From contig JBDTJH010000210.1 of NCBI GenBank assembly GCA_039935955.1, positions 2,799 through 66,798 on the forward strand: DNA of 64,000 nucleotides. Reading direction: 5' to 3'. Under the pieces are notes generated by a model. That model was not told the origin of the DNA and searched no databases. It saw only the letters and a program-made list of their open reading frames with translations. A program made the position numbers and the translations under genes. This stretch comes from Gemmatimonadaceae bacterium. GTDB taxonomy: Bacteria; Gemmatimonadota; Gemmatimonadetes; Gemmatimonadales; Gemmatimonadaceae. Each line of letters starts with the position of its first letter. The stretch's first letter is position 1. Shown in pieces: positions 2 to 25,125 of the stretch.

Positions 2-1669
2 ATGCGCGAGTTCGTGAGCACGGCGGGTGATCTCAAGCGCCGCAATCTCACCGAGGAATCGAAGGCGCTCGCCGACCAGCTCGACACCGCGTCGAAGGCG
101 CTACGCTCGGCCGAGACGTCGCTCGAGAACTTCCGGAAGAACACCATCACACTTCCGTCGGAAGCGCTGATCGCCGCGCCCGCAACGGGAATGGGCGCCG
201 GCGGCGGCGGTGGTGGCGGTGGTGGCGATCCGATGATCGGCAACTACTTCGGACAGAAGGCGCAGTACCTGACGATCCAGCACGACATTCAGATGCTGCA
301 GATTCTCGCGCGCGATCCGAACAGCATCACGGCGGACGCGTTCATCGGCATTCCGTCAGCGCAGTCATCGCCCGCACTGCAGGCCACGCTCCAGGATCTC
401 AGCAAGCGCGAGGCTGCTCTCCGCGCCGCGCGCGAGAGCTACACCGACGAGCATCGCATCGTGCAGGACCTTCGCCTCTCCGTGCAGGCGCTCCGCACAC
501 AGACGCTGCCGCAGGTGCTCAAACAGCTGATCGGTGAGCTGCAGGCGCGCGGCACCGACCTCAATCACCAGATGGCGAGCGCGTCCACCGAGTTGCAGAA
601 CATCCCGACGCGCACGATCGAGACGATGCGTCTGCAGCGCGATGTCGTCTCGCGCTCGTCGCTCTACTCGATGTTGCAGCAGCGGTATGCCGAAACGAAG
701 CTCGCGGAGGCGGGCGCGACTCCCGACGTCAGCATCCTCGACACCGCCGTCGCGCCGCTCGCGCCCACGACGAACACCGCGCCGACGATCCTCCTGCTCG
801 CGCTCATGGTGAGCTTCGGCGCATCGGTGGGTCTCGCGCTGCTGCTCGATCACACCGATCCACGCCTCCGCTATTCGGAGCAGGTCACGCGCGAGCTCGG
901 CCTCTCGATCCTCGGCGCCGTGCCGACGATCAAGCGCTCACGCGCCGGCGATCCCGATCCCGAGGAAGCCGCGCAAGTGATCGAGTCGTTCCGCACGATC
1001 CGCATGGCGATCACGAATCAGTACGACGCGAGCGGCTCGGCGATGCTCACGGTTTCGAGCCCGGGCGCCGGCGATGGGAAGTCGCTCGTCTGCTCGAATC
1101 TCGCGCTCTCGTTCGCCGAGGCGGGCTACCGCACGGTGCTCGTCGACGGCGACACGCGTCGCGGTCAGCTGCACGCGATGTTCGGAGCGAACCGTCGTCC
1201 TGGACTTCTCGATCTCCTCGGCGGCGACGCGCCGTTCGAGGCGATTCTCCGCACCACCACGCACGACCGTCTCACGCTCATCCCGTGCGGCACGCGCCGC
1301 CATCGCGGTCCGGAGCTGCTGCACTCGCAGGCGATGTCGCAGTTCATCGCCGAGCTTCGCCGCCGCTACGACGTCGTCGTGGTCGACAGCCCGCCGCTCG
1401 GCGCCGGCGTCGATCCGTTCGTGCTCGCCGCGGCGACGCAGAACATGTTGATCGTGCTGCGTACGGGCGCGACCGATCGGAAGATGGCCGAGAACAAGCT
1501 GAAGCTGCTCGATCGGCTACCGGTGCGGATGCTGGGTGCAGTGCTTAACGACATCCGCGCACAGGGTGAATACAAGTACTACTCGTACCTGTACGGATAC
1601 ACCACGAGCGAGGACGACGATCTGCCGCGTACCTCGCCGCAGGTCGGCGAGCTTACTGGGCGAACCTGA
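2..1669 (+). CDS. Wzc/EpsG-type polysaccharide co-polymerase fused to a bacterial tyrosine (BY) autokinase; the 5' end lies outside the window
   Basis: The frame is open to the window edge. A coiled-coil region is followed by the TM helix ILLLALMVSFGASVGLALLL and a P-loop kinase. Kinase motifs are Walker A SPGAGDGKS, Walker A' VLVDGDTRR and Walker B VVVVDSPP. The C-terminus carries the Tyr cluster EYKYYSYLYGY (nt 1571-1600). Confidence 0.9.
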   Translation: MREFVSTAGDLKRRNLTEESKALADQLDTASKALRSAETSLENFRKNTITLPSEALIAAPATGMGAGGGGGGGGGDPMIGNYFGQKAQYLTIQHDIQMLQILARDPNSITADAFIGIPSAQSSPALQATLQDLSKREAALRAARESYTDEHRIVQDLRLSVQALRTQTLPQVLKQLIGELQARGTDLNHQMASASTELQNIPTRTIETMRLQRDVVSRSSLYSMLQQRYAETKLAEAGATPDVSILDTAVAPLAPTTNTAPTILLLALMVSFGASVGLALLLDHTDPRLRYSEQVTRELGLSILGAVPTIKRSRAGDPDPEEAAQVIESFRTIRMAITNQYDASGSAMLTVSSPGAGDGKSLVCSNLALSFAEAGYRTVLVDGDTRRGQLHAMFGANRRPGLLDLLGGDAPFEAILRTTTHDRLTLIPCGTRRHRGPELLHSQAMSQFIAELRRRYDVVVVDSPPLGAGVDPFVLAAATQNMLIVLRTGATDRKMAENKLKLLDRLPVRMLGAVLNDIRAQGEYKYYSYLYGYTTSEDDDLPRTSPQVGELTGRT

Positions 1670-2603
1670 GCGACGAGCTGTCGTAGGCGCGGAGCTCGTT
1701 GCCGCGCTCGGCGTTCCGAACGGCACGCAGCGCCGAGTTCGCGCGCAGCAGCATCTCCACCGCATCGATGGCCGACCGCGCCCCATCCGCGACGGAGCAG
1801 TAGCCCGCACGCAGCTCCACGCGCTGCGCGATGCCGGCAGGGTGCGTGAGCATGTCGGAGAGCTGCGATTCGAGGCGTTCCATCATGCGAATCGCGCCCG
1901 GCTCTTCGGTGGCCGGCGCGATGATCGCAAACTCCGCGGGGCCGAGGCGTCCGATCGCATCCGACGCGCGTCCCGTACGACGCACGATGGCGCCGAGCCG
2001 CTCGATCATGATCTCGGTGATCGCGGCAGGCGTAGGCTCGGTGTCCGTGGTGGCGACGGGAGTGAACGCGACGCAGGAGATCGGCGCGTGGAGACGCTGC
2101 GCATCGGCAGACATCTCGCGTGCGCGGCGAACCATCCCCTGCATGTTGTACAACCCCGTCGCCTGGTCGAGCAGACTCTCATCACGGAGTCGATCCACGG
2201 CGCGCTTGCCACGCATGAACGCATCGAGCTTGAGCAGCAGCATCTCGGAGTCGAGCGGTTGACTGACGATCTCCCACGCACCGGCCTTGAATGCCTCGAG
2301 GCGCTCTTCGCGCTCGGGGGTGCCGGAGCTCGTGAAGATGATCGGCGTCTCCTCCGGAAAGTGCGGATCGTCGCGAAGCGCGCGGCAGACATCGACGCCG
2401 CGCATGTCGGGAAGCCGAACGTCGACCATGATGAGATCGGGCTGCGCGCTACGCACGAGACCGAGGAGCTGGCGACCGGTGTATGCGCGCAGGACTGCGA
2501 AGCCGTGCGGTCCGAGGATCGTCTCCAGGGAACGCGCGGCCCATTCATGCTCGTTAGCGAGCAGAATGAGAGGAGGTCGTGGTGTGAGACCGGCTTCCGT
2601 CAT
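1653..2603 (-). CDS. Receiver domain fused to a degenerate GGDEF domain (GPAEF) that retains the RxxD I-site
   Basis: The start is taken at MTEAGLTP (ATG 2603-2601), because the upstream part of the 345-aa ORF is Arg/Cys-rich junk. Receiver motifs are DLIMVDVRLPD, IIFTSSG and FKAGA. The GGDEF region reads RASDAIGRLGPAEFAIIAP (nt 1929-1970). Confidence 0.85.
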   Translation of the reverse strand: MTEAGLTPRPPLILLANEHEWAARSLETILGPHGFAVLRAYTGRQLLGLVRSAQPDLIMVDVRLPDMRGVDVCRALRDDPHFPEETPIIFTSSGTPEREERLEAFKAGAWEIVSQPLDSEMLLLKLDAFMRGKRAVDRLRDESLLDQATGLYNMQGMVRRAREMSADAQRLHAPISCVAFTPVATTDTEPTPAAITEIMIERLGAIVRRTGRASDAIGRLGPAEFAIIAPATEEPGAIRMMERLESQLSDMLTHPAGIAQRVELRAGYCSVADGARSAIDAVEMLLRANSALRAVRNAERGNELRAYDSSSLRFAQ

Positions 2604-2950
2604 GCACTTCCGGGTTGCTGGAGCGGTGCGGCGCAGCGGCCATCCTCGCGTTGCGACGCAGCGGCACGCCCTGCACGTAGTATGCGCCACGCGCGCACGT
2701 CTCCTAACGCATTGATTTAGTGCCTCTTAGAGAAAGTTCATCAACACAGGCAGACGCTTTCATGGGGCACGCGCGCTACATGACCGATGTAATGGTGAGA
2801 CGCGACGTATGCGACGTGTATCACACCGCTAATGAAACGCGGATCACAGAGTGTCGCAAGCATATGTGATTCATTTCTTTCCACCCACGTAATCTGCTTA
2901 CATTCGCAACGTGACCAGCGCGAACGCTATTGTAGAGGGGAGGCCACAGC

Positions 2951-2966: not shown

Positions 2967-3073
2967 CTTTGATGCGGTTGGGTTCGCCTCCCAAGTCACC
3001 AAGCCGTAAAGATTTATCCGTTCATGGCATTCTTCTCACCTCTAGCACGGCTGGTGCAATGATCACCGGGTAC

Positions 3074-3907
3074 ATGCGCACTTCATTTCGTTACAGCCTC
3101 GACCGGCTGCAAAGTTCGGCACGCGGAGTCCTGACCGTCTCCATGCTGGCAATCGGCATCAGCGCCTGCCACCACTCGGCGCCGCCGGTACAGTCGAAGC
3201 TCCTTCCTGCGAGCGACTCGCCGCATGCGGAAGCCACGAGGACGCAGCTGCAGGAGATGGCGGTCAACACGGATCAGGAAGCGAATGCTTCCACGGATCA
3301 GGCGACGAAGTCGCAGAAGATGATGCAGGCGGCAACGATTCGCGCTCGCCTTCGTGATGGTGATTTCGATGTCGGGGATCGCGTCTACGTCTCGATTCGC
3401 ACCGACTCGACGATCAGCGACACGGTCACTGTACGCGCGGGAAGAATGATCCGGCTTCCGAACATTCCGGACATCTCGCTGCAGGGCGTGCTTCGCTCGG
3501 AGCTCCAGGATTATCTGACGGCGCAGCTGACGCGCTATATCAAGCGGCCCGATGTGCAGACGACGTCGCTCGTGCGCGTGGCGGTGATGGGCGCGGTGAG
3601 CAAGCCGGGCTTCTATCAGTTGCCGGCGGATCTCGCGCTCGCGGATGCGATCATGATGGCGGGCGGGCCGACGAGTAATGCGGATGTAGACCGGACGCAG
3701 GTGAAGCGCGGCAACGATGTCGTTTACTCGTCGACGCTTCTCGGACAGGAAGTTGCAAAGGGAGCAACGCTCGACCAGCTCAATATCAGACCTGGTGATC
3801 AGATTCTCATTGGCGAACGACACAAGACGAACTGGGGGTTGATTGCCTCGATCGTCGGCATCAGCGCCGGACTCATTAGCACGATTGTCGTATTGAGGCG
3901 CCATTGA
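3074..3907 (+). CDS. Wza-type outer-membrane polysaccharide export lipoprotein (Poly_export + SLBB)
   Basis: A lipoprotein-like signal reads VSMLAIGISAC. The export-domain region reads DFDVGDRVYVSIRTD...IRLPNIPDISLQGV...LTRYIKRPDV, and the SLBB-like region reads VAVMGAVSKPGFYQLPADLALADAIMMAGG. The start is uncertain, with alternatives at 3059 and 2972. A start at 2972 conflicts with the sigma-54 site. Confidence 0.85.
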   Translation: MRTSFRYSLDRLQSSARGVLTVSMLAIGISACHHSAPPVQSKLLPASDSPHAEATRTQLQEMAVNTDQEANASTDQATKSQKMMQAATIRARLRDGDFDVGDRVYVSIRTDSTISDTVTVRAGRMIRLPNIPDISLQGVLRSELQDYLTAQLTRYIKRPDVQTTSLVRVAVMGAVSKPGFYQLPADLALADAIMMAGGPTSNADVDRTQVKRGNDVVYSSTLLGQEVAKGATLDQLNIRPGDQILIGERHKTNWGLIASIVGISAGLISTIVVLRRH

Positions 3908-4764
3908 GTAACGGACGTAGCGAAGGAGCAGCAAAAGTGTGGAGTATCCCGCAGGTCATCGATCAGCCGACGGTTGAGCGCGCTCCGATTCGTCGTCGGA
4001 GCGGAGCGTCGCGCATCGTCGCGCCCTCCGCGCCCGCCGCGGATTCGCAGATGGGGATCGAGACGTCGCGTCGCGCCGACCGGCGTATCACGCCCCAGGC
4101 GCCTACGATCGTCGAGGCCGAGCGCTCGGAGATCGCGAATCGCTGCGTGAACGTCGCGCTGGCATCGCTGTCGCTCGTCGCGCTGTCACCCGTGATCGTG
4201 CTCGTCGCGATCGCTGTCAAGCTCACGTCGCGCGGTCCGGCGGTGTACTCGCAGACGCGCGTCGGGCTCGATCGGCGCCGCCACGTGATCGATGCGCTGT
4301 ACAGCAATCGGAAGCAGGACCAAGGCGGGATAATCTTCACGATCTACAAGTTCCGCACGATGCGCGCGGACGCGGAGCGAAATTCGGGCGCAGTATGGGC
4401 CACGCGCAACGATCCACGCGTGACCAAGCTCGGCCGCATTCTCCGTCGCACCCGCCTCGATGAGCTGCCGCAACTGTGGAACGTGATCCGAGGCGACATG
4501 AACATCGTTGGTCCGCGCCCGGAGCGTCCGAGCATCTTCGTTCGCCTGCGCGAGGATCTTCCGGACTACAGGCTCCGCCAGCGCACCCGCCCCGGCATCA
4601 CCGGATGGGCGCAGATCAACCATGCGTACGACACGTCGATCGACGATGTGCGAACGAAGATCCGCTACGACCTCGAGTATCTCGAGCGCCAGTGCCTGGC
4701 GGAAGATTTGAAGATCATGGCGAAGACGGTTCCGGTGATGCTGTTCCGGCGCAGCGGCTGGTAA
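3904..4764 (+). CDS. Polyprenyl-phosphate glycosyl-1-phosphate transferase (bacterial sugar transferase, WbaP/EpsL-like priming enzyme)
   Basis: The hallmark motifs are FTIYKFRTMRADAE and RVTKLGRILRRTRLDELPQLWNVIRGDMNIVGPRPERP. There is one N-terminal TM helix. The TTG start overlaps the wza stop as TTGA; an alternative GTG lies at 3937. Confidence 0.93.
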   Translation: MSNGRSEGAAKVWSIPQVIDQPTVERAPIRRRSGASRIVAPSAPAADSQMGIETSRRADRRITPQAPTIVEAERSEIANRCVNVALASLSLVALSPVIVLVAIAVKLTSRGPAVYSQTRVGLDRRRHVIDALYSNRKQDQGGIIFTIYKFRTMRADAERNSGAVWATRNDPRVTKLGRILRRTRLDELPQLWNVIRGDMNIVGPRPERPSIFVRLREDLPDYRLRQRTRPGITGWAQINHAYDTSIDDVRTKIRYDLEYLERQCLAEDLKIMAKTVPVMLFRRSGW

Positions 4765-4784: not shown

Positions 4785-6488
4785 TTGAAGATACGGGGCG
4801 CTACTTTGCGGAGGTACATCGCCGGATCGGTTGCATGCACCGCGAATCGTCTCGTCGCGCTTGTGACAGTAAGCACGCTTTTCACCTGTGCTCCCGTCTC
4901 CGCACAACAGCCGCGGACGATCGTGATCGACTCCGCACGTCGTTCGCTCGAAGTGGGGCAATCGACCACCGTTCGGGCGACCGTTCTTGACTCCGCCGGT
5001 CACGTTGTTCAGCGTGCCGTTGCTTGGTCTAGTGACAATCCTGCGATCGCCCGTGTCGATGCCGATGGAGTCATCACCGCCGCCGGCGCCGGCGTGACCG
5101 GAGTGAGCGGAAGGATCGGTCCGAACGTGGCGTCGACACAGGTGAGCGTGTATTCGTCCTCCTCCGCGGGCACCGTGAAAGATCACGCCGATGGAGGGCA
5201 GCTCGAGCACACCAATGTGGTGGCGTCGAGGGCGCTGGCGAGAAGCGGGACGGCTCGATCTCCGCACTACTCGCACATTAGCGTGTTTTACACGGATTTC
5301 TATTCCACCTATGCGTCTCCATCTGACCGCGACGCGACGATCGCCTTCCTCGGCCCGCGAGTGGATGCGATAATGTCGGGGCCGGCGGCGGCGTGGAAGA
5401 ATGTGAATCCCACGGTTCGATACTTCCCATACGCGTTGCAGTACGAGGTCGTGCAGAGTCCGTCCGGAAAATCCGACGCCAGTCTGACGACGGCCTTTAC
5501 AGCCGACATGATTCACTGGTATGCGTCGCATCTCAAGTACGATTACGAATCCGCGTATCTGCATCGAGGTGGTCACGATTCGACTCATCGAGTAGCGTTC
5601 AAAAATGAGTCATATCGGTGGCTCATCAATCCCGACGACGCAGGCTCGCGCGCGTACCAGGCTGACCGTTTCGTGCGCATCGCGGAGGGACACGCAGGCG
5701 TATTTCTCGATGAATTCGGGGGCCCGATGTACGGCGCGATTAAGCCGACGGACGAATTCGCGACCGGCGCGGCGTATCTCGCGTCGGAAGCAGCGATGAT
5801 CGCGCACATTCACGCGGCGATTGCTCCCCGCATACTACTGATCAACATCGCGGAATACTGGACACCAACGGATTCGGCGATTGTCGTGGCGGGTGGCGGC
5901 GCACAGCTCGAGCGAACGAATTATCCATTTAGCGATCGAACCGAGGGCCGCTGGACGCAGATCGACCATCTGCTGGCAAGTGGTGTCTATACGGAGTTCG
6001 TGACGGCGATCTCGTATTCCGAATGGGCCGGCGTCACGCACAAGCATCCCAGCTTTGATGGAGGGCTCTACAGCTCGCCTACGGAGCGCGGGCAAATGTC
6101 GCAGCTCGCGAGCTACTACATGGCGGTGGGCGATGATCCCCAGCAGCTCTCATTCGATCAGCAGAATTTCTGGAATATTCGCCCGGACAAAGCGTGGGCG
6201 AGCGCGGTGGAGGTGGATGTTGGACATCCTGTGCAGGCGAGACACATCATCGCTAGGGGAGCCGATCCGAAGGGTCAGCAATATCGGATCTACGCGCGGG
6301 AATTCGAGCGCGCACTCGTGCTCGTGCGACCGGCCGTGGATTGGCGAACGACCGTCTACGGCGATGACACCGCGATCGAAGTCCCCCTGCCAAAGCCGAT
6401 GCGGTTGCTCCACCGCGACGGGACACTCGGAGCTTCCGTGACGAGCGTGAAGTTGCGGAACGTCGATGCCGCAATTCTCATCAAATAG
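4785..6488 (+). CDS. Secreted protein: signal peptide, one Big_2 (bacterial Ig-like) domain and an unassigned roughly 430-aa C-terminal domain (paralog A)
   Basis: There is no ATG; the start is TTG at 4785 or 4806. The signal peptide ends VSTLFTCAPVSA-QQ. The Big_2-like stretch reads LEVGQSTTVRATVLDSAGHVV...WSSDNPAIARVDADGVITAAGAGV. The C-terminal domain aligns along its length with the C-terminal domain of 7956-9962. The upstream part of the 670-aa ORF overlaps the sugar-transferase gene and is rejected. Confidence 0.7.
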   Translation: MKIRGATLRRYIAGSVACTANRLVALVTVSTLFTCAPVSAQQPRTIVIDSARRSLEVGQSTTVRATVLDSAGHVVQRAVAWSSDNPAIARVDADGVITAAGAGVTGVSGRIGPNVASTQVSVYSSSSAGTVKDHADGGQLEHTNVVASRALARSGTARSPHYSHISVFYTDFYSTYASPSDRDATIAFLGPRVDAIMSGPAAAWKNVNPTVRYFPYALQYEVVQSPSGKSDASLTTAFTADMIHWYASHLKYDYESAYLHRGGHDSTHRVAFKNESYRWLINPDDAGSRAYQADRFVRIAEGHAGVFLDEFGGPMYGAIKPTDEFATGAAYLASEAAMIAHIHAAIAPRILLINIAEYWTPTDSAIVVAGGGAQLERTNYPFSDRTEGRWTQIDHLLASGVYTEFVTAISYSEWAGVTHKHPSFDGGLYSSPTERGQMSQLASYYMAVGDDPQQLSFDQQNFWNIRPDKAWASAVEVDVGHPVQARHIIARGADPKGQQYRIYAREFERALVLVRPAVDWRTTVYGDDTAIEVPLPKPMRLLHRDGTLGASVTSVKLRNVDAAILIK

Positions 6489-6515
6489 CGTGCGTAGGAT
6501 GATCGCCGCCGGCGT

Positions 6516-7613
6516 TTGCCGGTGACGCCGCTCGTCGCACGTGCACGCCACCTTCCAGCGCTCGACGGTCTTCGCGCCGTCGCCGTATTCATCGTCATTG
6601 CCTACCACGCCGAATTGATCCAGGGAATTCCCGGCGACCTGGGCGTCACGCTCTTCTTCGTACTGTCCGGCTTCCTCATTACGTGGTTGCTGCTGCGGGA
6701 GTTCGCCTCGACCGGATCGATATCGATACGTGCGTTCTACACGAGACGTGCGCTCCGAATTTTCCCAGCCTACTACATGTTCATCCTCTTTTCTCTGGCG
6801 CTCGACACCGCACGGGGGCATCGCTGGTCGCTTGGCCTGATCTCGGTCGCCTTCACCTACCTCGTCAACTATTACAATGCTTTTCTCGGGCATCCGACGA
6901 CGTCGATCGCGCATGCGTGGAGCCTGGCAGTCGAGGAGCAGTTCTACTTGCTTTGGCCATTGGCGTGTCTGGCCCTTCTCCATCGCTCGCGCGCAGTCGC
7001 GAGGCGTACGGTTGGAATCGTCATCGTAGCTGTCGTCCTCTGGCGATCGGCGCTGTATCTGTTTCTGCACGCGCCAGCCTCATACGTCTACAACGCGTTT
7101 GATACACGGTGTGATGCGCTGGCGATCGGCTGCTTTATCGCTCTCTCATCCGAGGAGAGCTGGTTCGCTTCTCTCGAACGACGAATTCGGTCATCATCGT
7201 TGTTGCCGCTAGTGCCGATCGCCTTGATTCTGCTGTTTCGACACTATTCCTCACTAGCGTATCACTATAGCGTCGGGATGACGGTCGACGCGGTACTGAT
7301 CGCGCTTTTCATGATTCAGATGCTCGGACTTTCGACGACTCGACTCTGGTCCTGGCTCGACCATCCGATAACTCGCACACTTGGTCTCATCTCCTACCCG
7401 TGCTATCTGTATCATGCATGGGGACTGTCCGTGGGGGAGAAACTTCTCCCTCATGGCCCAAAGGTGCTGACGTTTGCAGTGGGTTACGCCGCTACGCTTT
7501 GTATGGCGTGGGGCTCGTTCAAGATCATCGAGCGTCCGTTTCTCACCATCAAGGATCGCATCTCCGCGTCTCCTCCAAGCGCGCAAAACGTGTCGGTCGG
7601 CATCGGTCTGTAG
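6516..7613 (+). CDS. Acyltransferase family 3 (integral-membrane O-acyl/acetyltransferase, OafA/WecH-like)
   Basis: The N-terminal signature is LPALDGLRAVAVFIVIAYH. About 10 predicted TM helices follow. SLAVEEQFYLLWP resembles the family motif. The start is TTG. Confidence 0.88.
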   Translation: MPVTPLVARARHLPALDGLRAVAVFIVIAYHAELIQGIPGDLGVTLFFVLSGFLITWLLLREFASTGSISIRAFYTRRALRIFPAYYMFILFSLALDTARGHRWSLGLISVAFTYLVNYYNAFLGHPTTSIAHAWSLAVEEQFYLLWPLACLALLHRSRAVARRTVGIVIVAVVLWRSALYLFLHAPASYVYNAFDTRCDALAIGCFIALSSEESWFASLERRIRSSSLLPLVPIALILLFRHYSSLAYHYSVGMTVDAVLIALFMIQMLGLSTTRLWSWLDHPITRTLGLISYPCYLYHAWGLSVGEKLLPHGPKVLTFAVGYAATLCMAWGSFKIIERPFLTIKDRISASPPSAQNVSVGIGL

Positions 7614-7955
7614 CGCCCACTCTCTCTCCGACACCACATAGATTTTCTTAGCTCGGCGCGACGCGGCGCAGTCAAGCGTCACTGTAATCATATGTATCAA
7701 CGTCGCCGCGTTAAGCGCGCGATGACCGCAACAAAACCACGCCATAAATCCATCGTGACGTCCGGCAAAGAAGACGCGTCTCTCCACCACGATCATCCTA
7801 CTAACCCATAGTACGGCGCGATCGCATGGGCTCATGCCCGGCGACAACGGCAAACCCGCCGAAAGACGGGGACGCAAAGCCAACGAGACTAAGGTGTGCC
7901 ACCCGGCACATTACGTCGGTCGGGTTGCCCGAAGAGCCTGTAAGGACTTTGGCTT

Positions 7956-9962
7956 ATGTCGATCTCTCGCCATGCACTCGCGCTCGCGAGCTGCGCGACC
8001 GTTGTCGCCTGCTCGGCAATGACGGATCCGTCGGCCTCTACCAACTCTCCACAGTCACTTGCGAGATGGATGATCATCTCGCCGGCGCAGCCGACGATAC
8101 CACCCGGCCAGACTCTGCTTCTCTCCGTTCGCATGCTGGACTCGGCCGGTCGCGACATCGCCGGCCAGCCCGAGTTGTGGACCACGAGCGACTCCTCGAT
8201 CGCATCAGTAGCCAGCGATGGAATGGTGAGCGCGCACTCCATCGGGAACGCGCAAGTCACGATCACGTCGGGAAACCGACGCGTCTCTGCGCTCGTGACC
8301 GTGTCGAACACATCGCCCGCGCCGACGTGGGTAACAGTGGACCCTGGAACCGCGCAGGTCTCCGTTCGCAGTACGCTCCGCTTGCTGTCGTCCGTAACGG
8401 ACGTCCACAATCACCCGCTTTCCAACGTACGAGTGACGTGGACGAGTGCCGACCCGTCGGTCGCTGGCGTCGATTCGACTGGCGTTGTTACCGGTGTTAC
8501 GACCGGTTCGGTCAACATTATCGTACATACGGCTTCGAATCAGGCTACGGCGCAGCTGACTGTAGTAGGCGCCAGCGCGACGCACCCTCCTGCGCCGCAG
8601 ACGCCGAACCAGCCCGCTCCGCCCCCGCCGCCGCCGCCGCTCCCACCGACATCCGCAGGCTCGTTGTATAGCGGATATAGCGCCGTCTCTCCGCACTGGC
8701 CGCACATCCGCACCGCCATCACTGACTTTTATTACTCGTGGAACGACGTTGAACGGCAGTGGGCGGGTCAGCACTACGACCTCTCGATGTCAGGGAGTGC
8801 CGCCGCGTGGAAAACCGTAAACCCGACGATCCAGAATTATCCGTACGTCCTCCTCGGCTTCACCGTGCTGCCCGCCGCGACGCCGTCAACCGGTATCCCC
8901 TCGAGCCAGTGGTACGACGATGCGGTGAGATGGTATTCGGGTCATACGCAGTACAACATCGAGACTGCATTCCTGCATCGCCTCGGTCAGCCAGCTGATG
9001 CCGCGCATCGCCTCAAGCCCTACGGATGGAGCTCCTATATCTGGGTTATCAACCCTGGAGATCCCGGCCTCATCGCCTACCAAACGGATCGTTTCCGGCG
9101 TCTCGCCTCGGGCCAGGATGGTCTCTTCATCGATGTTCAGGCATCGGGGGATTTCGCATCGTTTCTGAAGGACTCCAGTGGCCGCTCGAGCGAGTATACG
9201 AGTAGCGGTACCAGCTGGCCGCCCAGCGGCCAGTATTTTTCCGATTACGCGGCGCTGCTTCGCGCGCTCAAGAGCGCGGTTGGAACGGCCGTGCTGCAGC
9301 CGAACACTGCGACCTACAGCTTCGATCCCGATTTTGCGGACGTCAGCGCTGCCGGCGCTACGCACATGGAGAAGGCGAACAATCCGCTCTTCAGCGGACT
9401 GCCCGCCACCTGGAGTTGGATCGACAAGATGATCGGCGCTTCGGTGTCCGTGAACTTCGTCGATGCGCTCGACTATTCAGACATGAATTCCCTGAAGGTA
9501 CGTCTGGGGGGCAGCGCAGACAGTGCGTTCCATCGGATCAAGATGTTCGAGCTCGCCAGCTACTACATGGTCGTCCCCCATTCGCCTGACAAACTGCAGC
9601 TTCAGCTCGTGAACGAATGGAGCCGCCCCTTCTCGACGGTGTGGATAACGGCGCAGGAGGCGAACATCGGACACCCGACGGACATGCGTCAATCGCTGTC
9701 ACAGTCGGTTGTGGGCACCGATCCGTCCGGTCAGCAGGTGGTAGTGTATCAGCGCGACTTCGATCGTGCCCTCGTGATAGCACGGCCACAAACGGGATGG
9801 GGGACGCAACGCTACGACGATGCGTCAGCTGTTTCGATCCCACTTCCATCGAGCGAGACATGGGTTCCTCTGCACGCCGACGGAACCCTCGGCTCGCCCG
9901 TGACCACCATCAAGCTGAGAAACGCGGAGGCGGCGATTCTGATAAAGAAGCGAACGATTTAG
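7956..9962 (+). CDS. Secreted lipoprotein: two Big_2 domains, a Pro-rich linker and the same unassigned roughly 430-aa C-terminal domain (paralog B)
   Basis: The lipobox is LASCATVVAC. Two Ig-like repeats are present (…TSDSSIASVASDGMVSAHSIGNAQVTI… and …TSADPSVAGVDSTGVVTGVTTGSVNII…). The linker reads PAPPPPPPPLPP. The C-terminal domain shares AAWKTVNPT..YPY and the terminal DGTLGSPVTTIKLRNAEAAILIK with paralog A. Confidence 0.8.
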   Translation: MSISRHALALASCATVVACSAMTDPSASTNSPQSLARWMIISPAQPTIPPGQTLLLSVRMLDSAGRDIAGQPELWTTSDSSIASVASDGMVSAHSIGNAQVTITSGNRRVSALVTVSNTSPAPTWVTVDPGTAQVSVRSTLRLLSSVTDVHNHPLSNVRVTWTSADPSVAGVDSTGVVTGVTTGSVNIIVHTASNQATAQLTVVGASATHPPAPQTPNQPAPPPPPPPLPPTSAGSLYSGYSAVSPHWPHIRTAITDFYYSWNDVERQWAGQHYDLSMSGSAAAWKTVNPTIQNYPYVLLGFTVLPAATPSTGIPSSQWYDDAVRWYSGHTQYNIETAFLHRLGQPADAAHRLKPYGWSSYIWVINPGDPGLIAYQTDRFRRLASGQDGLFIDVQASGDFASFLKDSSGRSSEYTSSGTSWPPSGQYFSDYAALLRALKSAVGTAVLQPNTATYSFDPDFADVSAAGATHMEKANNPLFSGLPATWSWIDKMIGASVSVNFVDALDYSDMNSLKVRLGGSADSAFHRIKMFELASYYMVVPHSPDKLQLQLVNEWSRPFSTVWITAQEANIGHPTDMRQSLSQSVVGTDPSGQQVVVYQRDFDRALVIARPQTGWGTQRYDDASAVSIPLPSSETWVPLHADGTLGSPVTTIKLRNAEAAILIKKRTI

Positions 9963-12900
9963 TCACGGATCAAATGGGTCGTCATCACCCGAGTCGTCGG
10001 ACGGGGGGCCACCCAGCCCCGCAGCTTTCTCGACTCGCAGCACCTGTCGCTGCGTCGCGCCGCCCGCAGTCATCGTGACGACGTAGTCGCCGGTCTCGAC
10101 GATGGTGCCGCCGCGACGCCCGCCGCCGAATCCGCCTCCCGGCAAGGCCTTGCTCGCGCGCACTGCTCCCAACACGTCGCGCAGCACCTCCTGGCTCACG
10201 GCGCCTTCCTCCCCTTCGCCCCCCTCCCCACCCGCTGCCGCACCGGGCGCCTTTACGCTGTCCGCGCCGTGATGCCCCCCATGATGCGGCAGAGGACTCT
10301 CCGCCGGACGCTCGGCGAAGTGTCCACCGCCGCCACCGCCGCCGCCGGACGCACGCTCGAACAGCTCGCCGATGGTGCCGTTCTCGAGATGCTCACGCAC
10401 GGTCTCGAGCACCGGCTTGGGTGCGACGCCCGCGGTCGCGAGCGAGTCGAAGACATGGTCGAGCTTTCGCGCGGTGACGAGGCTGTCCCGTCGTCCCGCG
10501 GGTGTGAGCGGCGTCGGCGCCGGCGTCTTCCCCGTGAGATCCCAGGCGACGTGATGAATCCCCGCGCCGCCGCGTCCCGTCAGCGATTTGATGGTGTCGC
10601 CCTTCACGTTCGTGATCACGAGCTTCACCGTGTCTTTCTGCGTTCCGCCCGTGAGCCGGTAGACGATGTCCGCGCCGAAGGGTGCGCTTCGCCCCTTGAA
10701 GACACTCTGACCCGCGGTGAGGTCAGCGCCCGGCGACTCTCCGAATGCGTACGCCGTCTTCGGCGCAAAGAGATACCCGCCGCTCTTCGCGTACACGCTG
10801 TCGGCAAGCTGCTCGAGCGGCGCCACGTCGGCGATCCAGATGCCCCGTCCATGCGTCGCCGCGATGATCTCGTGGTCGCGCGGGTGGATCTTGAGATCGT
10901 GCACCGGTACCGTCGGCAGCCCGCTCATGAACTTCTGCCAGCTCTGCCCGCGATCGCGCGAGATGTACGCGCCCACATCCGTGCCGACGTAAAGCAGGTC
11001 GCGGTTCACCGGATCCTCGCGGATCACGTGGAGGAAATCGGGACCTCCCTTCGGCAGATCGCTCGCGATCGACTTGAACGTCTTCCCGAAGTCGCTCGTG
11101 ACGAAGAGGTAGGGCGCAAAATCGTCGACGCGATGACCATCGAATGCCACGTAGAAGGTCGCACTGTCGAAGTGCGACGGCTCGATGCGAACGACGTACG
11201 TCTTCGGCGGGACACCGGGGAAGCGCCCCGTGAGATTCTCCCATGTAGAACCGTTGTCGTGCGTGAGCCAGACGTTGCCATCGTCGGTGCCGGCCATGAG
11301 CAGCCCCGGACGCACGTACGATTCGGCGAGCGTCGTGATCGTGCCGTACGTCTCCGCGCCGGTCGCATCGTTCGTGATGCCGCCGGTCGAGTCCATGCTC
11401 CACCGCACCTTCGCCATGTCGTGCGTCGAGAGGTCGGGAGAGATTGGAAGGAAGTCGTCACCGCGGTTCGTCGACATGAGCACGCGATTGCCCGCGGCGT
11501 AGATCGTCGAGGGCGCGTGCGGAGAGATGATGTACGGCGTGTTCCAGTTGAAGCGGAGATCGAGGTCGGTCGAGTCCTTCTCCTGCATCGCGCGCAGCTC
11601 GGCGAGGCGCTTCTTCCCGGACGACGGTAGCGGCTTCGCGGTGTCTCCGCGCGCGACGAGGATCGAATCCTCGATCTGCAGATAGCGCGGACGCCACGTG
11701 GGCTTTACGAGCGGCTTGCTGTCGCCCGTGGCGTAGTCGAGGCGGCGGATGTTGCCGCCCTGCGATTCGGCGTAAATAATGTCGGGGTTCGTCGGGTCTT
11801 GCGCGGTGTAGAAGCCATCGCCGCCGCCGACGGTGAACCAGTCCGCATTCGTGATCGCACCGCGCTTGCGGCTCGGACCGCACCAGCTGCCGTTGTCCTG
11901 CAGTCCGCCACATACGCGATACGGTACCGCCATGTCGTAGCTGACTTCGTAGAACTGTCCGATCGAGATGCGATTGAGGAAATCGAAGTTGCCGCCGCGA
12001 TCCCACGTCTGCGACACGCCGCCATCATCGCCGACGAGAAAATGCTCCCCATCATTGGGATCGATCCACATCGCGTGGTGATCGACGTGAACGCCGATGG
12101 TCCCGCTGCGCACCGTCTTGCCGCCATCATCGGAGAAACTGAACGGCGTGGATGTCCAGTAGACGCGATTCGACAGCTTCGGATCGACGCGCACCTGCGA
12201 GTAATAGAACGGTCGCACGTCGACATCGTTCATCCACCGCCACGTCTTGCCCGCGTCCTGTGACCGATACAGTCCGCTCAGTAGTCGCTGCCGCTTCGCC
12301 GCCTTCGGCTTCTCCCCCGCAGAGTCGCTCGACGGCGCGCGCAGCGCATGTGTTGCACCGCGCAGCGAGTCCGCCTCGACGAGTGCGTAGACGGTGGCGG
12401 GATTGCTACGCGAGATGGCAACGTTGATGCGCCCCTTCATCGTCTCGGGAAATCCGCCGCCTTCCACCTTCGTCCACGTCGCACCGGCATCCGCGCTGCG
12501 CCAGAGCGCGCTTCCGGGTCCGCCGCTCTTTAGGAAGTACGGACCGCGCACTCGCTCGTAGCTCGACGCCCAGATCACATCCGGATTCGAGGGATCCATC
12601 GCAACGTCGACGAAGCCCGCCTTGTCGCTCACGAACTTGATGAGCTGCCAGCTCTTCCCGCCGTCCGTGGTCTTGTAGAGCCCGCGCTCGGGATTAGAGC
12701 CCCATACATGACCGAGTGCCGCGACGTAGACGATGTTCGGATTGGTGGGATGCACAATGATGCGACCGATCTGCTGCGTCTTCTCGAGTCCCATGAGCTT
12801 CCATGTCAGCCCGCCATCGGTGCTCTTGAAGATCCCGCCGCCCGGCGAGATCGAGTTGCGCGAGTTCTGCTCGCCGGTGCCGGCCCAGATCTCGTCCGTG

Positions 12901-13411: not shown

Positions 13412-14584
13412 CTACTCGGGAATCGCGGCGCGGCGAGTCGGCTCCCACATCGGCAGCCGCTTGCTGCGCATCGCGAGAATCCACGCGCTCAACCCTCCGA
13501 GAGTCGAGGCGAGCGCAAAGCCTGCCACCGCGATGGGCAGCGGCACGCGGTGTCCTTCGGGCCAGCGCATCGCGGCCAGTCCCGCGGAGATTCCCGCGAT
13601 GATGGCGAAGACGAGCGCGAGCGCGACGCGCGACGACAGCGCGAGCCACACGATGCCGACGATCGCCAGCGGGATCGAGAGATAGACCAGCCAGCGCGCA
13701 AGCTTGTGGCTGGCGAGCGCAAAGGCGAAGGCGCCGTAGCGGATTGGATTCAGCAGCGACGCTCCGTAGCGCAACGTCTCGAGCCCCTGCGCCATCGTGC
13801 GCGCCTTCCGCTTCGTCTCCGCACGCAGCGACGGCGTGCGTGGCACGACGGCCGTCGCCTCGTTCACGGATACGGCGCGCAGGCCGAGCCGCTTCGCGAT
13901 GAGCGCGCTCGCAAAGTCGCGCGCGAGATCGTCGCGGAGCACGGTGCGTTGAATCTGCACCCGCGTGGCATAGCAACAGCCGCTCGCGCCGACGATGCCG
14001 CCGAGCCGTGTCTCGAGGTCGCGGACCCACATCTCGTAGCCGACGTAGCCGGACTCTCCGCGATTGCCTTCGACCTCGGCGCCCACGCTGATGTCGCGCC
14101 CCGATGCGACACCGATTGTCGGATCCTGGAAGGTGCGCACGAGCGCCTTCACCGAGTGCGGCTGGATGCGGATCGAAGCGTCGGTGTTGACGATGATCTC
14201 GCCGCGCAACGCCGCCGCCGCGGCATTCTCCGCCGCCGTCTTCCCGCCGCGCTGCGCGACACGATAGAGCTCGACGCCTCGGTCGGCGTACTCGGCCACG
14301 ATGCGGTCGGTGTCATCGCTCGATGCATCGGAGACGATCAGGATCTGCCGGCGATCGGCAGGATAGTCGATGGCGAGCAGACTCTCGATCGTCGAGCGGA
14401 TGCGCGCGGCCTCGTTGTACGCGGGGACGGTAATCGAGATGAGGGGCCACGTCGCCGGGTCGGCCGGCACGGCGCGCGGCGAGCGGAAGCGCGAGACAAT
14501 CCAGAGTGCGGCGGGATAGCCTGCATACGCCCAACCGAAGATCGCGACGGGAAGCGCGACGAGGATGTACGGGACGCTGCTCAC
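13412..14584 (-). CDS. Membrane-integrated family-2 glycosyltransferase (synthase-like topology)
   Basis: The GT-A signature is ISITVPAYNEAARI...IVSDASSDDT...IVNTDAS. TM helices are present at the N-terminus and at the C-terminus. The GTG start at 14584 overlaps the upstream stop as GTGA. Confidence 0.85.
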   Translation of the reverse strand: MSSVPYILVALPVAIFGWAYAGYPAALWIVSRFRSPRAVPADPATWPLISITVPAYNEAARIRSTIESLLAIDYPADRRQILIVSDASSDDTDRIVAEYADRGVELYRVAQRGGKTAAENAAAAALRGEIIVNTDASIRIQPHSVKALVRTFQDPTIGVASGRDISVGAEVEGNRGESGYVGYEMWVRDLETRLGGIVGASGCCYATRVQIQRTVLRDDLARDFASALIAKRLGLRAVSVNEATAVVPRTPSLRAETKRKARTMAQGLETLRYGASLLNPIRYGAFAFALASHKLARWLVYLSIPLAIVGIVWLALSSRVALALVFAIIAGISAGLAAMRWPEGHRVPLPIAVAGFALASTLGGLSAWILAMRSKRLPMWEPTRRAAIPE

Positions 14585-15750
14585 GAGTGGCTTCCGCCCC
14601 GCGCGCGTGCCCCGATCAGGTGGCGGTAAAGCTCTTCGTAGCGCTCGGCCCACGGCGCCACGTCGTACTCGCTGCGCTGTCGCTGCTGGCCCGCCTGCGC
14701 GCGCTCGGAGGCGGCGCCCGGATCATCGATGGTCGCGCGGATGGCGGCCGCGAGGGCACGCGGATCGTCTGCGGCGACGAGCACTCCTTCCGCGGGCGAG
14801 AGCAGATCCGGGATGCCGCCCACGGCGGTAGTCACGATCGGCACGCGCGCGGCCATCGCCTCCAGCAACACCATCGGCAGCCCCTCCGCCCGCGAGCTCA
14901 TGACGAAGACATCGAAGGCTGCGAAGTAGCGCGCCGCATCGGGCACGGTGCCCAGCCACTGGAAGCGTCCCGGAGCAAGTGACTCGGCTCGAGCCTCCTG
15001 CGCGGAGCGCTCGGGGCCGTCGCCGACGATCGTAGCGCGGATGACGCGGTCGCCGATGGCGTGAATGGCGTCAATGAAGACGTCGACCCCCTTCTCGATG
15101 CTAACTCGGCCGACCCAGCCGGCTACTAGCCCCTCCGGGGCGAGGCCGAGGGCGAGCCGTGCGGCGGCTCGGTCGACGGGATTCGGGTGGGCGGCGAGAG
15201 CGTTGGCGATGATATGGGTACGGGTCTCCGGCACGCCGCTGGCGCGAAGGAAGGCGGCCTGTGGCTGCGAGACGACCACGACAGCGTCGAACCGTTCGAA
15301 CGCGCGGCGCTGGAGCGCTTCAAAGGTGCGGTTCTTTAGCGAACCACCAGTAAAACCGTGAACGGTGGTTACTATTGGAAGCCCTTCGCTGCGACCCGCC
15401 ATCCCCCCCACGATGTCAGACCTGTAACCGTGTGTATGCACTACACTTACATGCTTGTCAGCGCACAGCTTCCTGATCAGCCGGCATTCGCGAAGATAGC
15501 TTCGGCGGGCGACGGTGAGCGGGATGATCTCGACGCGACTGCCGGCAAGGGAGGCAAGAAAGCCCTTCCCGTCGTCCTGGGCCGAGAGCGTCGGGGCCAC
15601 GATTACTCTATGCCCCGCACGGCTTTGCGCCCGCGCAAGCATCGAGACGACCGTCTCCAGCCCCCCTACCGGAGCGGGGGCGAGCAGATGCAGAATAGTG
15701 AGCGGCGTGGACAGTGCGGTTGGGTCGGAAGGATACGGGTGGCCGAGCAA
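14581..15750 (-). CDS. Family-4 (GT-B) glycosyltransferase
   Basis: The N-terminus reads ILHLLAPAPVGGLETVV. The C-terminal GT1 motif is SRAEGLPMVLLEAMAARVPIVTTAVGGIPDLL. The only in-frame start is TTG at 15750. Confidence 0.88.
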   Translation of the reverse strand: MLGHPYPSDPTALSTPLTILHLLAPAPVGGLETVVSMLARAQSRAGHRVIVAPTLSAQDDGKGFLASLAGSRVEIIPLTVARRSYLRECRLIRKLCADKHVSVVHTHGYRSDIVGGMAGRSEGLPIVTTVHGFTGGSLKNRTFEALQRRAFERFDAVVVVSQPQAAFLRASGVPETRTHIIANALAAHPNPVDRAAARLALGLAPEGLVAGWVGRVSIEKGVDVFIDAIHAIGDRVIRATIVGDGPERSAQEARAESLAPGRFQWLGTVPDAARYFAAFDVFVMSSRAEGLPMVLLEAMAARVPIVTTAVGGIPDLLSPAEGVLVAADDPRALAAAIRATIDDPGAASERAQAGQQRQRSEYDVAPWAERYEELYRHLIGARARGGSHS

Positions 15751-15963: not shown

Positions 15964-17388
15964 CTGGTCTCGGGCATCGCGTGGACGGGGGGAACGAAGT
16001 GGGCGACCCAGCTTCTGAGCTGGGCGGCCACTCTCGTGGTGGCGCGCATCCTTTCCCCGTCCGACTATGGGCTCATGGGAATGGCCGCCGTCTACCTCGG
16101 CCTCGTGACCCTGGTGAATGAGTTCGGGCTCACGGCCGCGATCCTGCGGCATCGCGAGCTGACCGAGGAACAGATCGCGCGCGTGGGCGGCTTCAGCGTG
16201 CTGGTTGGCCTCGTGATCGCCGCGATCTCCGTGTCGGTTTCGCCGCTCATCGCGCGATTCTATGGTGAGCCTGCGGTCGCGACGATCATCTCCGTGTTGA
16301 GCCTGAACTTCGTCTTCGGCTCGCTCGGCGTTCTCCCGCGGTCGCTGCTGGCGCGCGATCTCGCGTATCCGCGGCTCGCGATGATCGATGGGATCACGAA
16401 CCTCGCGCAGATGTTGACGATGCTCGCGTTTGCGATCGGCGGCTATCGCTACATGGCGCTGGTGTTCGGCAGTCTCGTCGGCAGCGCGTGTGGCGCGCTG
16501 CTCGCGCTCTGGTGGCGGCCGCACAAGCTCGCATGGCCGTCGTCGTTCGACACGATCGGCGGCGCACTGCACGTCGGGTGGCATATCGTGGTAGGGCGGC
16601 TCGCGTGGTACACGTACAACACCGCGGACTTCGCTGTCGTCGGGCGAGTGCTTGGCAAGCAGTCGCTGGGGGCGTACACGCTTGGCTGGGAGATCGCGAC
16701 GATGCCGGTCGAGCGTATCAGCTCGCTCGTGTCGAGTGTGACGCCCGGAATTTTCTCGGCGGTGCAGCACGACATCGCGGCGCTGCGGCGCTATTTTCTC
16801 GGTGTCGTCGAGGGGCTCGCGTTCATCACGCTGCCGGCGGCGGCGGGGCTCGCGCTCATCGCGGGTGAGTTCGTTCCGGTGGTGCTTGGGCAGCAGTGGC
16901 TTGGCGCGATCGTCCCGCTGCGGCTGCTCGCGTTGTATGGTGGCGTGCGGTCGATCGACACCGTGACGCCGCAGGTGCTCATCTACACCGGGAATTCGCG
17001 GCAGAGTATGTGGTAGTCGGTGATCGCCGCGTGCGTTATGCCGGTGCTGTTCGTGGTTGGAACGAAATGGGGCGTCGGTGGCGTGGCCGCGGTGTGGATC
17101 GTCGCGTATCCGATCGTCGTCGCGCCGCAGTATCGACTCGCCTTTCGTGTGCTCGAGATGCCGGCCGGCGCATATTTCAGGACGCTCTGGCCGGCCGTGA
17201 GCTCGACAGCGATCATGGCACTGGCGGTCGGCATCGTGCAGGCTACGCTCCCTCCTACGCTGGCTCCGGTGGCTCGCTTGGTGATCGAAGTGGTCGTTGG
17301 CATAGCGGCGTACGGCGGGATGATCGCGTGGCGTCATCGGGCGCGCGCGCGCGCGTTCGTCTCGATCGTGCGGGAGCACGCGCTGTGA
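15964..17388 (+). pseudogene. wzx: Wzx-type (MOP superfamily) polysaccharide flippase interrupted by an in-frame TAG at 17014-17016
   Basis: ORF 16036-17016 and ORF 17020-17388 are in the same frame and together form one roughly 470-aa multi-TM flippase. The N-terminus reads SLVSGIAWTGGTKWATQLLSWAATLVVARILSPSDYG. The stop aligns with R of the intact paralog, as W*S versus WRS. There is no ATG, GTG or TTG in frame between the upstream stop (15829-15831) and 16036. Possible starts are CTG at 15964, or ATG at 15890 in another frame, which would imply a frameshift. Confidence 0.75.
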
Positions 17389-23504: not shown

Positions 23505-23517
23505 CGGTGGTCATGCC

Positions 23518-25118: not shown

Positions 25119-25125
25119 GTCCGGA

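Follow-up and report, generated by a model that had tools for sequence, protein, structure and literature searches.

Paired Big_2 proteins with a predicted GH168/GHL15-like glycanase domain in a Gemmatimonadaceae exopolysaccharide locus, one of them preceded by a c-di-GMP-I riboswitch

The stretch of DNA analysed here (the window) comprises 64,000 nucleotides of contig JBDTJH010000210.1 from a Gemmatimonadaceae bacterium (assembly GCA_039935955.1). Between positions 4785 and 9962, within an exopolysaccharide (EPS) locus of the Wzx/Wzy type, the window carries two paralogous genes, here called A and B, on either side of an acyltransferase-3 gene (AT3), and a riboswitch of the c-di-GMP-I class lies upstream of B (Table 1). 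We consider it probable that A and B encode exported, Big_2-stalked retaining endo-glycanases of a type resembling glycoside hydrolase (GH) family 168 and GHL15, that they act on the EPS made by the cell itself, and that B is gated by cyclic di-GMP (c-di-GMP). The riboswitch was found in an Rfam scan; an earlier note on the interval, made from the sequence without database searches, had described both genes and the acyltransferase with no mention of it.

The products of A and B aligned over 572 columns with 33% identity in BLASTP (E = 7e-87), which is far above chance level, and all six motif pairs quoted in the earlier note were located in the two translations. A tblastn search of the window found no third copy of the family, A and B being the sole matches. 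The most plausible start of A is TTG at 4785, the earliest in-frame start past the upstream gene; TTG at 4806 is an alternative, and the mechanical open reading frame (ORF) extends back to 4476. B starts with ATG at 7956. Pfam PF02368 identified a single Big_2 domain in A and a pair in B, in agreement with the architecture described before, and residues 123-208 of B also matched the Ig-like module of 7quz in a search of Protein Data Bank (PDB) sequences. The Pro-rich linker in B is PPAPQTPNQPAPPPPPPPLPP. The description of B as a lipoprotein was borne out by its N-terminus, MSISRHALALASCATVVAC/S, which contains a lipobox (criterion, [LVI][ASTVI][GAS]C near the end of the N-terminal hydrophobic segment and conserved in orthologues) with Cys19 and a second conserved Cys, Cys13; the pattern ..SCA..[VL][AG]C/S is retained in the orthologues from five related loci (L001-L005). 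The signal peptide noted for A was also present, ending VSA/QQ, and what had been missed is that A may, like B, be a lipoprotein, because its orthologues retain a Cys in a lipobox-like context (VVAC, LGSC, LVSC; LFTC in the window).

The shared C-terminal region (418 aa in A, 435 aa in B) was modelled with AlphaFold2 (AF2), using a 20-sequence alignment for the B domain. Both models consist of eight beta-alpha units followed by a C-terminal beta-sandwich, so that the TIM barrel guessed in the earlier note was recovered and the beta-sandwich, which the note had missed, was added to it. The predicted fold is that of GH168, a (beta/alpha)8 barrel with a small C-terminal beta-sandwich (PMC11685898, PMC12210190). 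In Foldseek searches of the PDB, from which the best 50 of 166-206 matches at E ≤ 0.001 were considered, the matches listed for both models were glycosidases or transglycosidases only, an enzymatic fold rather than the pure binding module that the earlier note had named as the outcome speaking against an enzyme. The A model matched GH168 structure 9f9v (E = 4.4e-12, TM score 0.58/0.66) and the B model matched GH66 dextranase 8iu9 (E = 9.4e-12) and GH168 structure 9jos (TM score 0.56/0.66), with 8ya6, 9jom and 8rg5 as further GH168 structures among the top matches. The best superpositions among the matches listed were those on GH168 (TM score 0.55-0.66, root-mean-square deviation [rmsd] about 5-6 Å), the rmsd on GH66 being about 9-10 Å. 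A viral fold library returned generic TIM-barrel GH matches only (e.g. GH5, alpha-galactosidase).

In line with the description of the domain as unassigned, searches of Pfam, NCBIfam and PDB sequences at thresholds as loose as E ≤ 1-10 returned no match to the C-terminal regions of A and B; with A, B or a profile of 20 close family members as query, only the Big_2 parts were matched. An exhaustive profile search recovered 711 clusters (50% identity) at E ≤ 1e-3, 388 at E ≤ 1e-10 and 140 at E ≤ 1e-30. A broad profile, built from 46 aligned shorter family members with 23-47% identity to B, reached GH168 in PDB sequences (9jom, E = 5.3e-7; Fun168A 8ya6, E = 1.3e-6; 9jos, E = 2.7e-5; MeGH168 9nhf, E = 9e-4), as well as a GH66 CITase (E = 8e-4) and PelA (E = 7e-3). 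The earlier note had guessed a GHL-type enzyme and given PF14885 as an example to search with: A and B were unmatched by PF14885 (GHL15), and 14 of the 46 relatives matched it (best E = 2.7e-10), one of them, P0252, above the curated cutoff (27.6 bits against 27); together with the profile matches to GH168, this supports the GHL-type guess. As the structure deposited under the name 'GHL15 protein' (9NHF) is the published MeGH168 (PMC12210190), GHL15 and GH168 appear to be largely one lineage, and the characterised relatives act on glycans. Our favoured interpretation, held with some reserve, is that the catalytic module of A and B is a deeply diverged, previously unannotated branch of the GH168/GHL15 lineage that lies out of reach of the Pfam model. 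The domain is probably homologous to GH168/GHL15, and under CAZy practice it would probably form a separate family or a distant subfamily once activity is shown.

Seven columns were invariant over the 46 sequences (B-domain numbering): Y64, D160, N217, E239, R294, G339 and R367. They include the Asp of GVFLDE/GLFIDV and the Glu of AQLE/THME, acidic residues to which the earlier note had drawn attention and whose loss in homologues it had said would count against an enzyme; both are retained in 46/46. In the hidden Markov model alignment, the Asp of DGxFxD and the Glu of H/Q-x-E align with D221 and E279 of the 8ya6 chain, which correspond to D206 and E264 of Fun168A after a 15-residue tag offset, both pairs being 58 residues apart. 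Mutagenesis and a product complex have identified Fun168A D206 as the nucleophile and E264 as the general acid/base (PMC11685898); the equivalents in MeGH168 are D167/E237 (PMC12210190). The predicted nucleophile and acid/base are thus D309 (codon 5709-5711) and E376 (codon 5910-5912) in A, and D393 (codon 9132-9134) and E472 (codon 9369-9371) in B, so that the catalytic Asp/Glu pair expected of GH168/GHL15 is predicted in both paralogs. Other GH168 motifs were also aligned, namely the Asn after beta5, W...G-x-P, and R-(D/E)-F-(D/E)-x-A-x-V against TREFEHASV, the last standing at the start of the beta-sandwich in B; as judged from the alignment, these further agreements strengthen the argument for true homology over mere resemblance of fold. 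As to the -1 subsite (Y99, N101, N218 and W332 of WfGH168_II), the Asn and Trp of GH168 are paired in the alignments with invariant N217 and with W330 (≥ 90%). Invariant Y64, a candidate equivalent of Y99, falls outside the GH168-aligned stretch and is followed two residues later by Leu, not Asn.

The Big_2 stalks and the lipid anchor would also suit an adhesin or tether, and since glycanase activity is deduced by homology, the domain could be a catalytically dead scaffold that binds EPS to the envelope. Pseudoenzymes normally lose their catalytic residues, whereas both paralogs and 46 relatives of 23-47% identity keep the Asp/Glu pair, the Asn and a number of Arg and aromatic positions without variation, and we regard a dead scaffold as very unlikely. 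Slightly less credible still is an esterase, deacetylase or other non-glycosidic polysaccharide modifier that partners the O-acyltransferase, the alternative raised in the earlier note. The adjacent acyltransferase gene and the joint absence of AT3 and B in locus L056 would fit such a partner, but the conserved residues map to a glycosidase nucleophile and acid/base, and the candidate was rejected because no carbohydrate esterase or deacetylase was among the Foldseek matches listed.

GH66 enters the comparison through the dextranases and CITases. The lowest Foldseek E for B was to GH66, the broad profile covered beta3-beta5 of the CITase including W-x-x-N/D-P and D-G-x-x-x-D, and the family member P0118 gave a weak Pfam GH66 match. 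A and B might accordingly be transglycosylases that branch, cyclise or ligate EPS repeat blocks in the manner of GH66 CITases or GH13 transferases: GH66 CITases and GH13/GlgE transferases were among the significant structural and profile matches, retaining chemistry permits transglycosylation, and a paralog pair around a modifying acyltransferase suits remodelling. We nevertheless judge this improbable, as the best superpositions were on GH168 hydrolases (TM score 0.56-0.66, rmsd about 5 Å, against about 9 Å for GH66), the sequence bridge is strongest to GH168, and there is no positive evidence of an acceptor site. The superposition on GH66 is poor overall (rmsd 9-10 Å, TM score 0.36-0.51), and GH66 enzymes, whose substrate is alpha-1,6-glucan, differ from A and B in their greater size, with additional domains at both termini.

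The aptamer upstream of B spans the whole RF01051 model and ends 23 nt before the ATG of B, with a Shine-Dalgarno-like AAGGA between. In a MAFFT alignment of 28 leaders, 97.1% of the cells were paired (29-42% in slid controls) and both partners had changed in 10 of the 22 pairs; the covariation score was 0.283, compared with 0.145 in shuffles, and none of 500 shuffles reached 0.283. GGCAAAC, GACGCAAAGCC and the GCC of the 3′ GGGU(U/C)GCC segment were invariant in 28/28 aptamers. We take these nucleotides to be the equivalents of the ligand contacts G20, A47 and C92 of Vc2, where G at position 20 denotes c-di-GMP over cGAMP. With the RF01051 score, the two hairpins and the ligand-contact positions all present, the predicted ligand is c-di-GMP.

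A custom covariance model built from the leaders was run on 790 kb, consisting of the window and 61 related loci, and returned 38 matches, 38/38 of which lay on the coding strand directly upstream of a family gene. Starts were called for 36 of the 38 genes, and in 33 the start codon is 14-28 nt past the aptamer; for L036 and L053, where the earliest in-frame GTG runs into the end of the aptamer, translation more plausibly begins at a TTG about 20 nt farther on. The products of the 35 genes with a reliable start all have a canonical lipobox signal peptide; for the remaining gene, in L039, the automatic start was in the wrong frame. The switch is carried by about 38 of 64 evaluable family genes and by none of the A-type genes. 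Tandem or divergent gene pairs in L033, L034, L037, L055 and L059 have a riboswitch for each gene, and in L055 two riboswitches stand ahead of family genes with interrupted reading frames. Rfam separately confirmed four of the matches and gave no match ahead of five lipoprotein members without the switch; leaders of L035, L019 and L018 scored 61-82 bits, and that of L030 (4904-4994) had its highest score with c-di-GMP-I-GGC, a variant from the same clan (RF03167, 71.2 bits, gathering score 59). The L030 aptamer belongs to a riboswitch subgroup with …CGACAAGGGCAAACC…, which also includes the leaders of L033-L037 and L059.

The 23 nt between aptamer and start codon leave no room for a terminator, so that control of B would be translational. 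RNAalifold of 14 B-type leaders paired CGACA with AUGUCG at the start codon and placed the Shine-Dalgarno sequence in a small hairpin, a fold that would mean occlusion of the ribosome-binding site when formed; as these pairs never vary, they neither support nor refute it, and we give the fold no evidential weight. An outer P1 helix, GGCUC/GAGCC, was considered and rejected: its 5′ partner varies and GAGCC does not. A conserved GATCGC and a short covarying hairpin lie just 5′ of the aptamer (7815-7838, + strand, and equivalents in L001-L059), with hairpin variants GGGC-UCAU-GCCC, GGACCC-UUUG-GGGGUCC and GGGCUCC-CGGAGCUC; possible roles for this element are those of a 5′ end of the leader, a component of the expression platform or an element close to the promoter. 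The CGACAA at the 5′ end of the aptamer is invariant in these leaders though unconserved in the Rfam consensus. Promoter and terminator consensus scans of 6400-10200 gave counts about equal to those in shuffled sequence.

Pfam-level annotation of the neighbours placed A and B within a Wzx/Wzy-type EPS locus, as the earlier note had said, with Wzc-like, Wza-like, Bac_transf, GT2, two GT4 (glycosyltransferase families 2 and 4), Wzx (Polysacc_synt_3), Wzy_C, DegT, GNAT/FemAB and ATP-grasp genes, and confirmed that the paralogs bracket an acyltransferase-3 gene (PF01757). A begins 21 nt past the stop codon of the priming transferase gene and AT3 starts 28 nt after A; because of these short gaps, A probably shares a transcript with wza and the phosphoglycosyl transferase gene. 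The gap between AT3 and B is 342 nt and is conserved in orthologues. Five other genomes (L001-L005) have the same gene order, Wzc - REC/GGDEF - Wza - Bac_transf - A - AT3 - B - GT2 - GT4; in L056, which shares the synteny of A with them, A is retained and both AT3 and B are missing. The joint absence of AT3 and B, a single comparison, hints that B is matched to an O-acylated polymer. GC content at third codon positions (GC3) is lower in A, AT3 and B (0.69-0.73; overall GC 0.58-0.61) than in the flanking locus genes (0.80-0.88), and this drop over 4785-9962 suggests a cassette of different history, or relaxed codon bias, in a variable part of the EPS locus.

Table 1. Coordinates of A, B, their predicted domains, the riboswitch and the neighbouring genes in the window
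Feature	Position	Strand	Description
Gene A	4785..6488	+	567 aa; signal peptide, one Big_2, GH168/GHL15-like catalytic region (predicted)
Big_2 of A	4923..5108	+	Residues 47-108; PF02368, E = 1.2e-5, 25.6 bits (cutoff 22.8)
(beta/alpha)8 barrel of A	5232..6218	+	Residues ~150-478; AF2 pLDDT 87.7, pTM 0.89
C-terminal beta-sandwich of A	6219..6485	+	Residues ~479-567; model strands 338-417; ends DGTLG..VT..KLRN..AAILIK
AT3, integral-membrane Acyl_transf_3 O-acyltransferase	6516-7613	+	PF01757, E = 3.6e-22
c-di-GMP-I riboswitch aptamer	7839..7932	+	RF01051, 66.3 bits (gathering score 35), E = 8.8e-11, model 1-87 of 87
Gene B	7956..9962	+	668 aa; lipoprotein signal peptide, two Big_2, Pro-rich linker, GH168/GHL15-like catalytic region (predicted)
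Two Big_2 of B	8070..8579	+	Residues ~39-108 and ~123-208; PF02368, E = 8.7e-19, 67.7 bits (cutoff 22.8)
(beta/alpha)8 barrel of B	8655..9665	+	Residues ~234-570; AF2 pLDDT 86.7, pTM 0.87
C-terminal beta-sandwich of B	9666..9959	+	Residues ~571-668; model strands 346-431
Wzc-like co-polymerase/kinase	2-1669	+	
REC-GGDEF protein	1653-2690	-	
Wza-like exporter	2969-3907	+	
Priming Bac_transf	3904-4764	+	
Sortilin/BNR propeller protein	9963-~13100	-	
GT2	13412-14653	-	
GT4	14581-15750	-	
Wzx (Polysacc_synt_3)	16036-17016	+	
GT4	18823-20148	-	
ATP-grasp	19941-21653	-	
Wzy (Wzy_C)	22065-23504	-	
DegT aminotransferase	23961-25118	-	
GNAT/FemAB-like acyltransferase	25126-26208	-	

Because A and B are embedded in a Wzx/Wzy/Wza/Wzc locus, the polymer made by that locus is their presumed substrate. 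The position of the genes could instead be incidental, A and B being surface-anchored endo-glycanases that forage on foreign polysaccharides of plants, fungi, algae or other bacteria. The closest characterised relatives are indeed catabolic fucanases of polysaccharide-utilisation loci, the 3-5 family copies per genome are typical of catabolic carbohydrate-active enzymes, a number of paralogs are found away from EPS loci, including one that adjoins a sugar transporter of the major facilitator superfamily (MFS), and a Sortilin/BNR beta-propeller protein adjoins B. However, A is wedged between the priming transferase and the O-acyltransferase in a conserved operon-like arrangement, other family members stand between GT4 and Wzy genes (such as the riboswitch-bearing member in the EPS locus of L033), no SusC/D, TonB-receptor, sulfatase or sugar-catabolic genes were present among the locus genes scanned, and c-di-GMP control suits biofilm matrix physiology better than nutrient induction. 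We therefore hold foraging to be unlikely, though the most credible of the alternatives considered here. The setting in an EPS locus of a soil Gemmatimonadaceae speaks against an algal fucan as substrate, as does the fact that the genes scanned include no sulfatases.

For the preferred role, cleavage of the cell's own EPS, we infer hydrolytic activity, substrate and cellular location from homology and context. By homology, catalysis would proceed by retaining double displacement, with the Asp at the end of beta4 as nucleophile and the Glu at the end of beta6 as acid/base, and the enzymes would cut the polymer endolytically in the periplasm or at the cell surface. Such cutting might serve chain trimming, release, quality control or matrix remodelling. 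Judging from its position 21 nt behind the priming glycosyl-phosphate transferase gene, A would be expressed along with the export machinery, an arrangement comparable with that of PslG, BcsZ, PelA and PgaB; B, the lipid-anchored copy, has a leader to itself and would have its translation tuned by c-di-GMP. A switch that is OFF at high c-di-GMP would make B an enzyme of dispersal or remodelling, and one that is ON an enzyme of trimming associated with biosynthesis. B might also be specific for the O-acylated polymer resulting from the adjacent acyltransferase. More speculatively, and with considerable doubt on our part, Gemmatimonadaceae may possess a c-di-GMP riboswitch regulon of lipid-anchored GH168-like endo-glycanases, with more than one autonomous riboswitch-gene unit in a genome and units both within and away from EPS loci, that constitutes a new GH family acting on the cell's own matrix polysaccharide, in which the messenger sets matrix cutting at the RNA level, with A serving biosynthesis and export and B remodelling or dispersal.

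Several observations weigh against the own-EPS, GH168-like interpretation. Characterised GH168 enzymes degrade foreign sulfated fucans of algae or echinoderms, not self-made EPS. Many riboswitch-bearing paralogs occur outside EPS loci, for instance between an MFS transporter and an AI-2E transporter in L021 and between purK and uvrA in L009, and locus membership for this reason does not fix the substrate family-wide; distant members occur in yet other contexts, e.g. beside esterases or fn3-rich proteins. At the level of sequence, A and B do not themselves qualify as members of GH168 or PF14885: PF14885 matched neither of them at E ≤ 1 nor any of 20 close homologues at E ≤ 10, and neither B alone nor the close-family profile matched GH168 in PDB sequences. 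A separate hhalign run of the close-family profile against the Fun168A segment gave the same Asp/Asn/Glu register, weakly supported, with a probability of only 6.7% (E = 0.0055). The proposed homology with GH168 thus draws on the broad profile and on structure prediction. Nor can the direction of the switch be derived from modelled accessibility of the Shine-Dalgarno sequence, whose unpaired probability over 31 leaders in ViennaRNA was 0.34 free and 0.37 with the aptamer constrained, showing no consistent trend.

The reference set for GH168/GHL15 consists of endo-alpha-1,3-L-fucanases: Fun168A (8YA6/8YA7), Fun168D/E, PbFucA (8RG3-5), Rho5174 (9F9V) and MeGH168 (9NHF). A and B resemble these in the barrel and beta-sandwich (Foldseek TM score 0.55-0.66) and in the succession of DG-x-F-x-D with the beta4 Asp, Asn after beta5, x-x-E with the beta6 Glu, W/Y...G-x-P and R-E/D-F-E/D-x-A-x-V. 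They differ in that the identity of the A/B domain to GH168 is only about 10-14%, the barrel has about 70-100 extra residues in its N-terminal third, and N101 of WfGH168_II is not obviously kept in the family. Big_2 domains at the N-terminus, lipid anchors and c-di-GMP riboswitch control also set A and B apart, as does the location of the genes in an EPS biosynthesis locus of a soil bacterium rather than a marine fucoidan utilisation locus.

PelA (GH166) and Ega3 (GH114) are functional analogues, both being TIM-barrel endo-alpha-glycanases that are encoded in biofilm EPS systems or act on these. Like A and B as proposed here, PelA is a periplasmic or secreted TIM-barrel glycanase tied to a c-di-GMP-governed EPS system, and its profile match (E = 0.007) covers beta3-beta4. 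Its sequence relation is much weaker than that of GH168, and PelA is fused to a deacetylase and regulated via the protein receptor PelD, not via RNA; the Pel system is synthase-dependent, whereas the locus of A and B is of the Wzx/Wzy type.

Polymer-cleaving enzymes encoded in their own EPS loci include PslG (GH39), BcsZ (GH8), AlgL, the C-terminal domain of PgaB (GH153) and ExoK/ExsH (GH16), and PgaB is an outer-membrane lipoprotein with a TIM-barrel glycanase domain. To our knowledge, none of them is under riboswitch control. Their families are unrelated to A and B or related at the fold level only. Among c-di-GMP-I (GEMM-I) regulons, those of Vibrio cholerae (Vc1/gbpA, Vc2) and Clostridioides difficile (Cd1, zmpI/adhesin genes) share with B the RF01051 class and envelope or matrix genes as targets. 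Unlike in these regulons, the targets in the present family are GH168-like lipoproteins, with several independent riboswitch-gene units per genome, and unlike in terminator-type c-di-GMP-I switches, the B aptamer abuts the ribosome-binding site, which points to translational control. A glycanase in an EPS locus is hence a known kind of component, and glycanase lipoproteins each with its own c-di-GMP-I riboswitch are undescribed as far as the searchable literature shows: we found no report joining c-di-GMP riboswitches with Gemmatimonadota, GH168/GHL15 or EPS glycoside hydrolases in the literature searched, an absence that is no proof of novelty.

The analysis supplies a fold, a mechanistic hypothesis and targets for point mutation for a domain that is blank in Pfam and NCBIfam and comprises at least 711 clusters at 50% identity. 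It would extend the GH168/GHL15 lineage, known from marine fucoidan degraders only, to soil Gemmatimonadaceae and EPS loci, suggesting non-fucan substrates. The link between c-di-GMP-I riboswitches and putative glycanases (38/38), found in the poorly studied yet abundant soil phylum Gemmatimonadota, would tie the biofilm second messenger directly to cleavage of matrix polysaccharide. Should the predicted activity prove true, the proteins would come into consideration as a new CAZy family and as EPS-depolymerising tools.

The related loci were sampled with family-specific peptide patterns, which biases them to close relatives. Homologues with a named source came from metagenome-assembled genomes (MAGs) of Gemmatimonadota, mostly Gemmatimonadaceae, and the 61 loci are almost all from Gemmatimonadaceae MAGs. 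The sole non-Gemmatimonadota genome recovered was MAG JBBIVY, labelled Planctomycetota (L054, L057, L058, L065), with at least four family members and no riboswitch; these differ in their N-terminal regions (fn3 in P0147), and one adjoins two esterase genes. On the same contigs as L001 and L056, L042 (8001-9233) and L055 (3229-4463) hold an extra riboswitch-controlled member about 5 kb from the GT4b orthologue. At roughly that GT4b-near site, the window has no family gene and carries Wzy, DegT aminotransferase and GNAT/FemAB genes instead (22065-26208). One distant member, P0263 (L066, 426-1838), which the family profile matches with E = 3e-28, is encoded on a phage-like contig; its neighbours include a Laminin_G_3 protein and an SU10_adaptor homologue, in a setting of tail-adaptor and tail-fibre-like genes. 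By analogy, this would be the typical neighbourhood of a tail-associated polysaccharide depolymerase, and we count it in favour of a glycanase. P0252 and P0175 sit on contigs of about 2.6 kb, too short to show their gene context, and looking up the clusters of ten representatives yielded hardly any taxonomy.

Among the other genes of the locus, the REC protein has a degenerate GGDEF motif (GPAEF) and retains the RxxD I-site (RASD) at canonical spacing. From these motifs it looks like a c-di-GMP receptor, not a cyclase; a receptor at this position would provide a second, protein-level c-di-GMP input to the EPS locus. The protein adjoining B downstream is a Sortilin-Vps10/BNR double-propeller protein of about 1045 aa whose mechanical ORF continues to 14030 and overlaps GT2; the gene is present in L001 and L003 and missing at the same position in L002, L004 and L005, which indicates an indel within the locus. 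Farther along the window, a SAM_alpha (SAM-II) riboswitch (31352-31426, + strand, 40.9 bits, gathering score 36) lies upstream of metH (31494-35024, + strand), which encodes a B12-dependent methionine synthase (Pfam S-methyl_trans, Pterin_bind, B12-binding, Met_synt_B12). In L038, L045, L047 and L050, a SAM_alpha riboswitch is divergent to an adjoining family member that has no c-di-GMP riboswitch.

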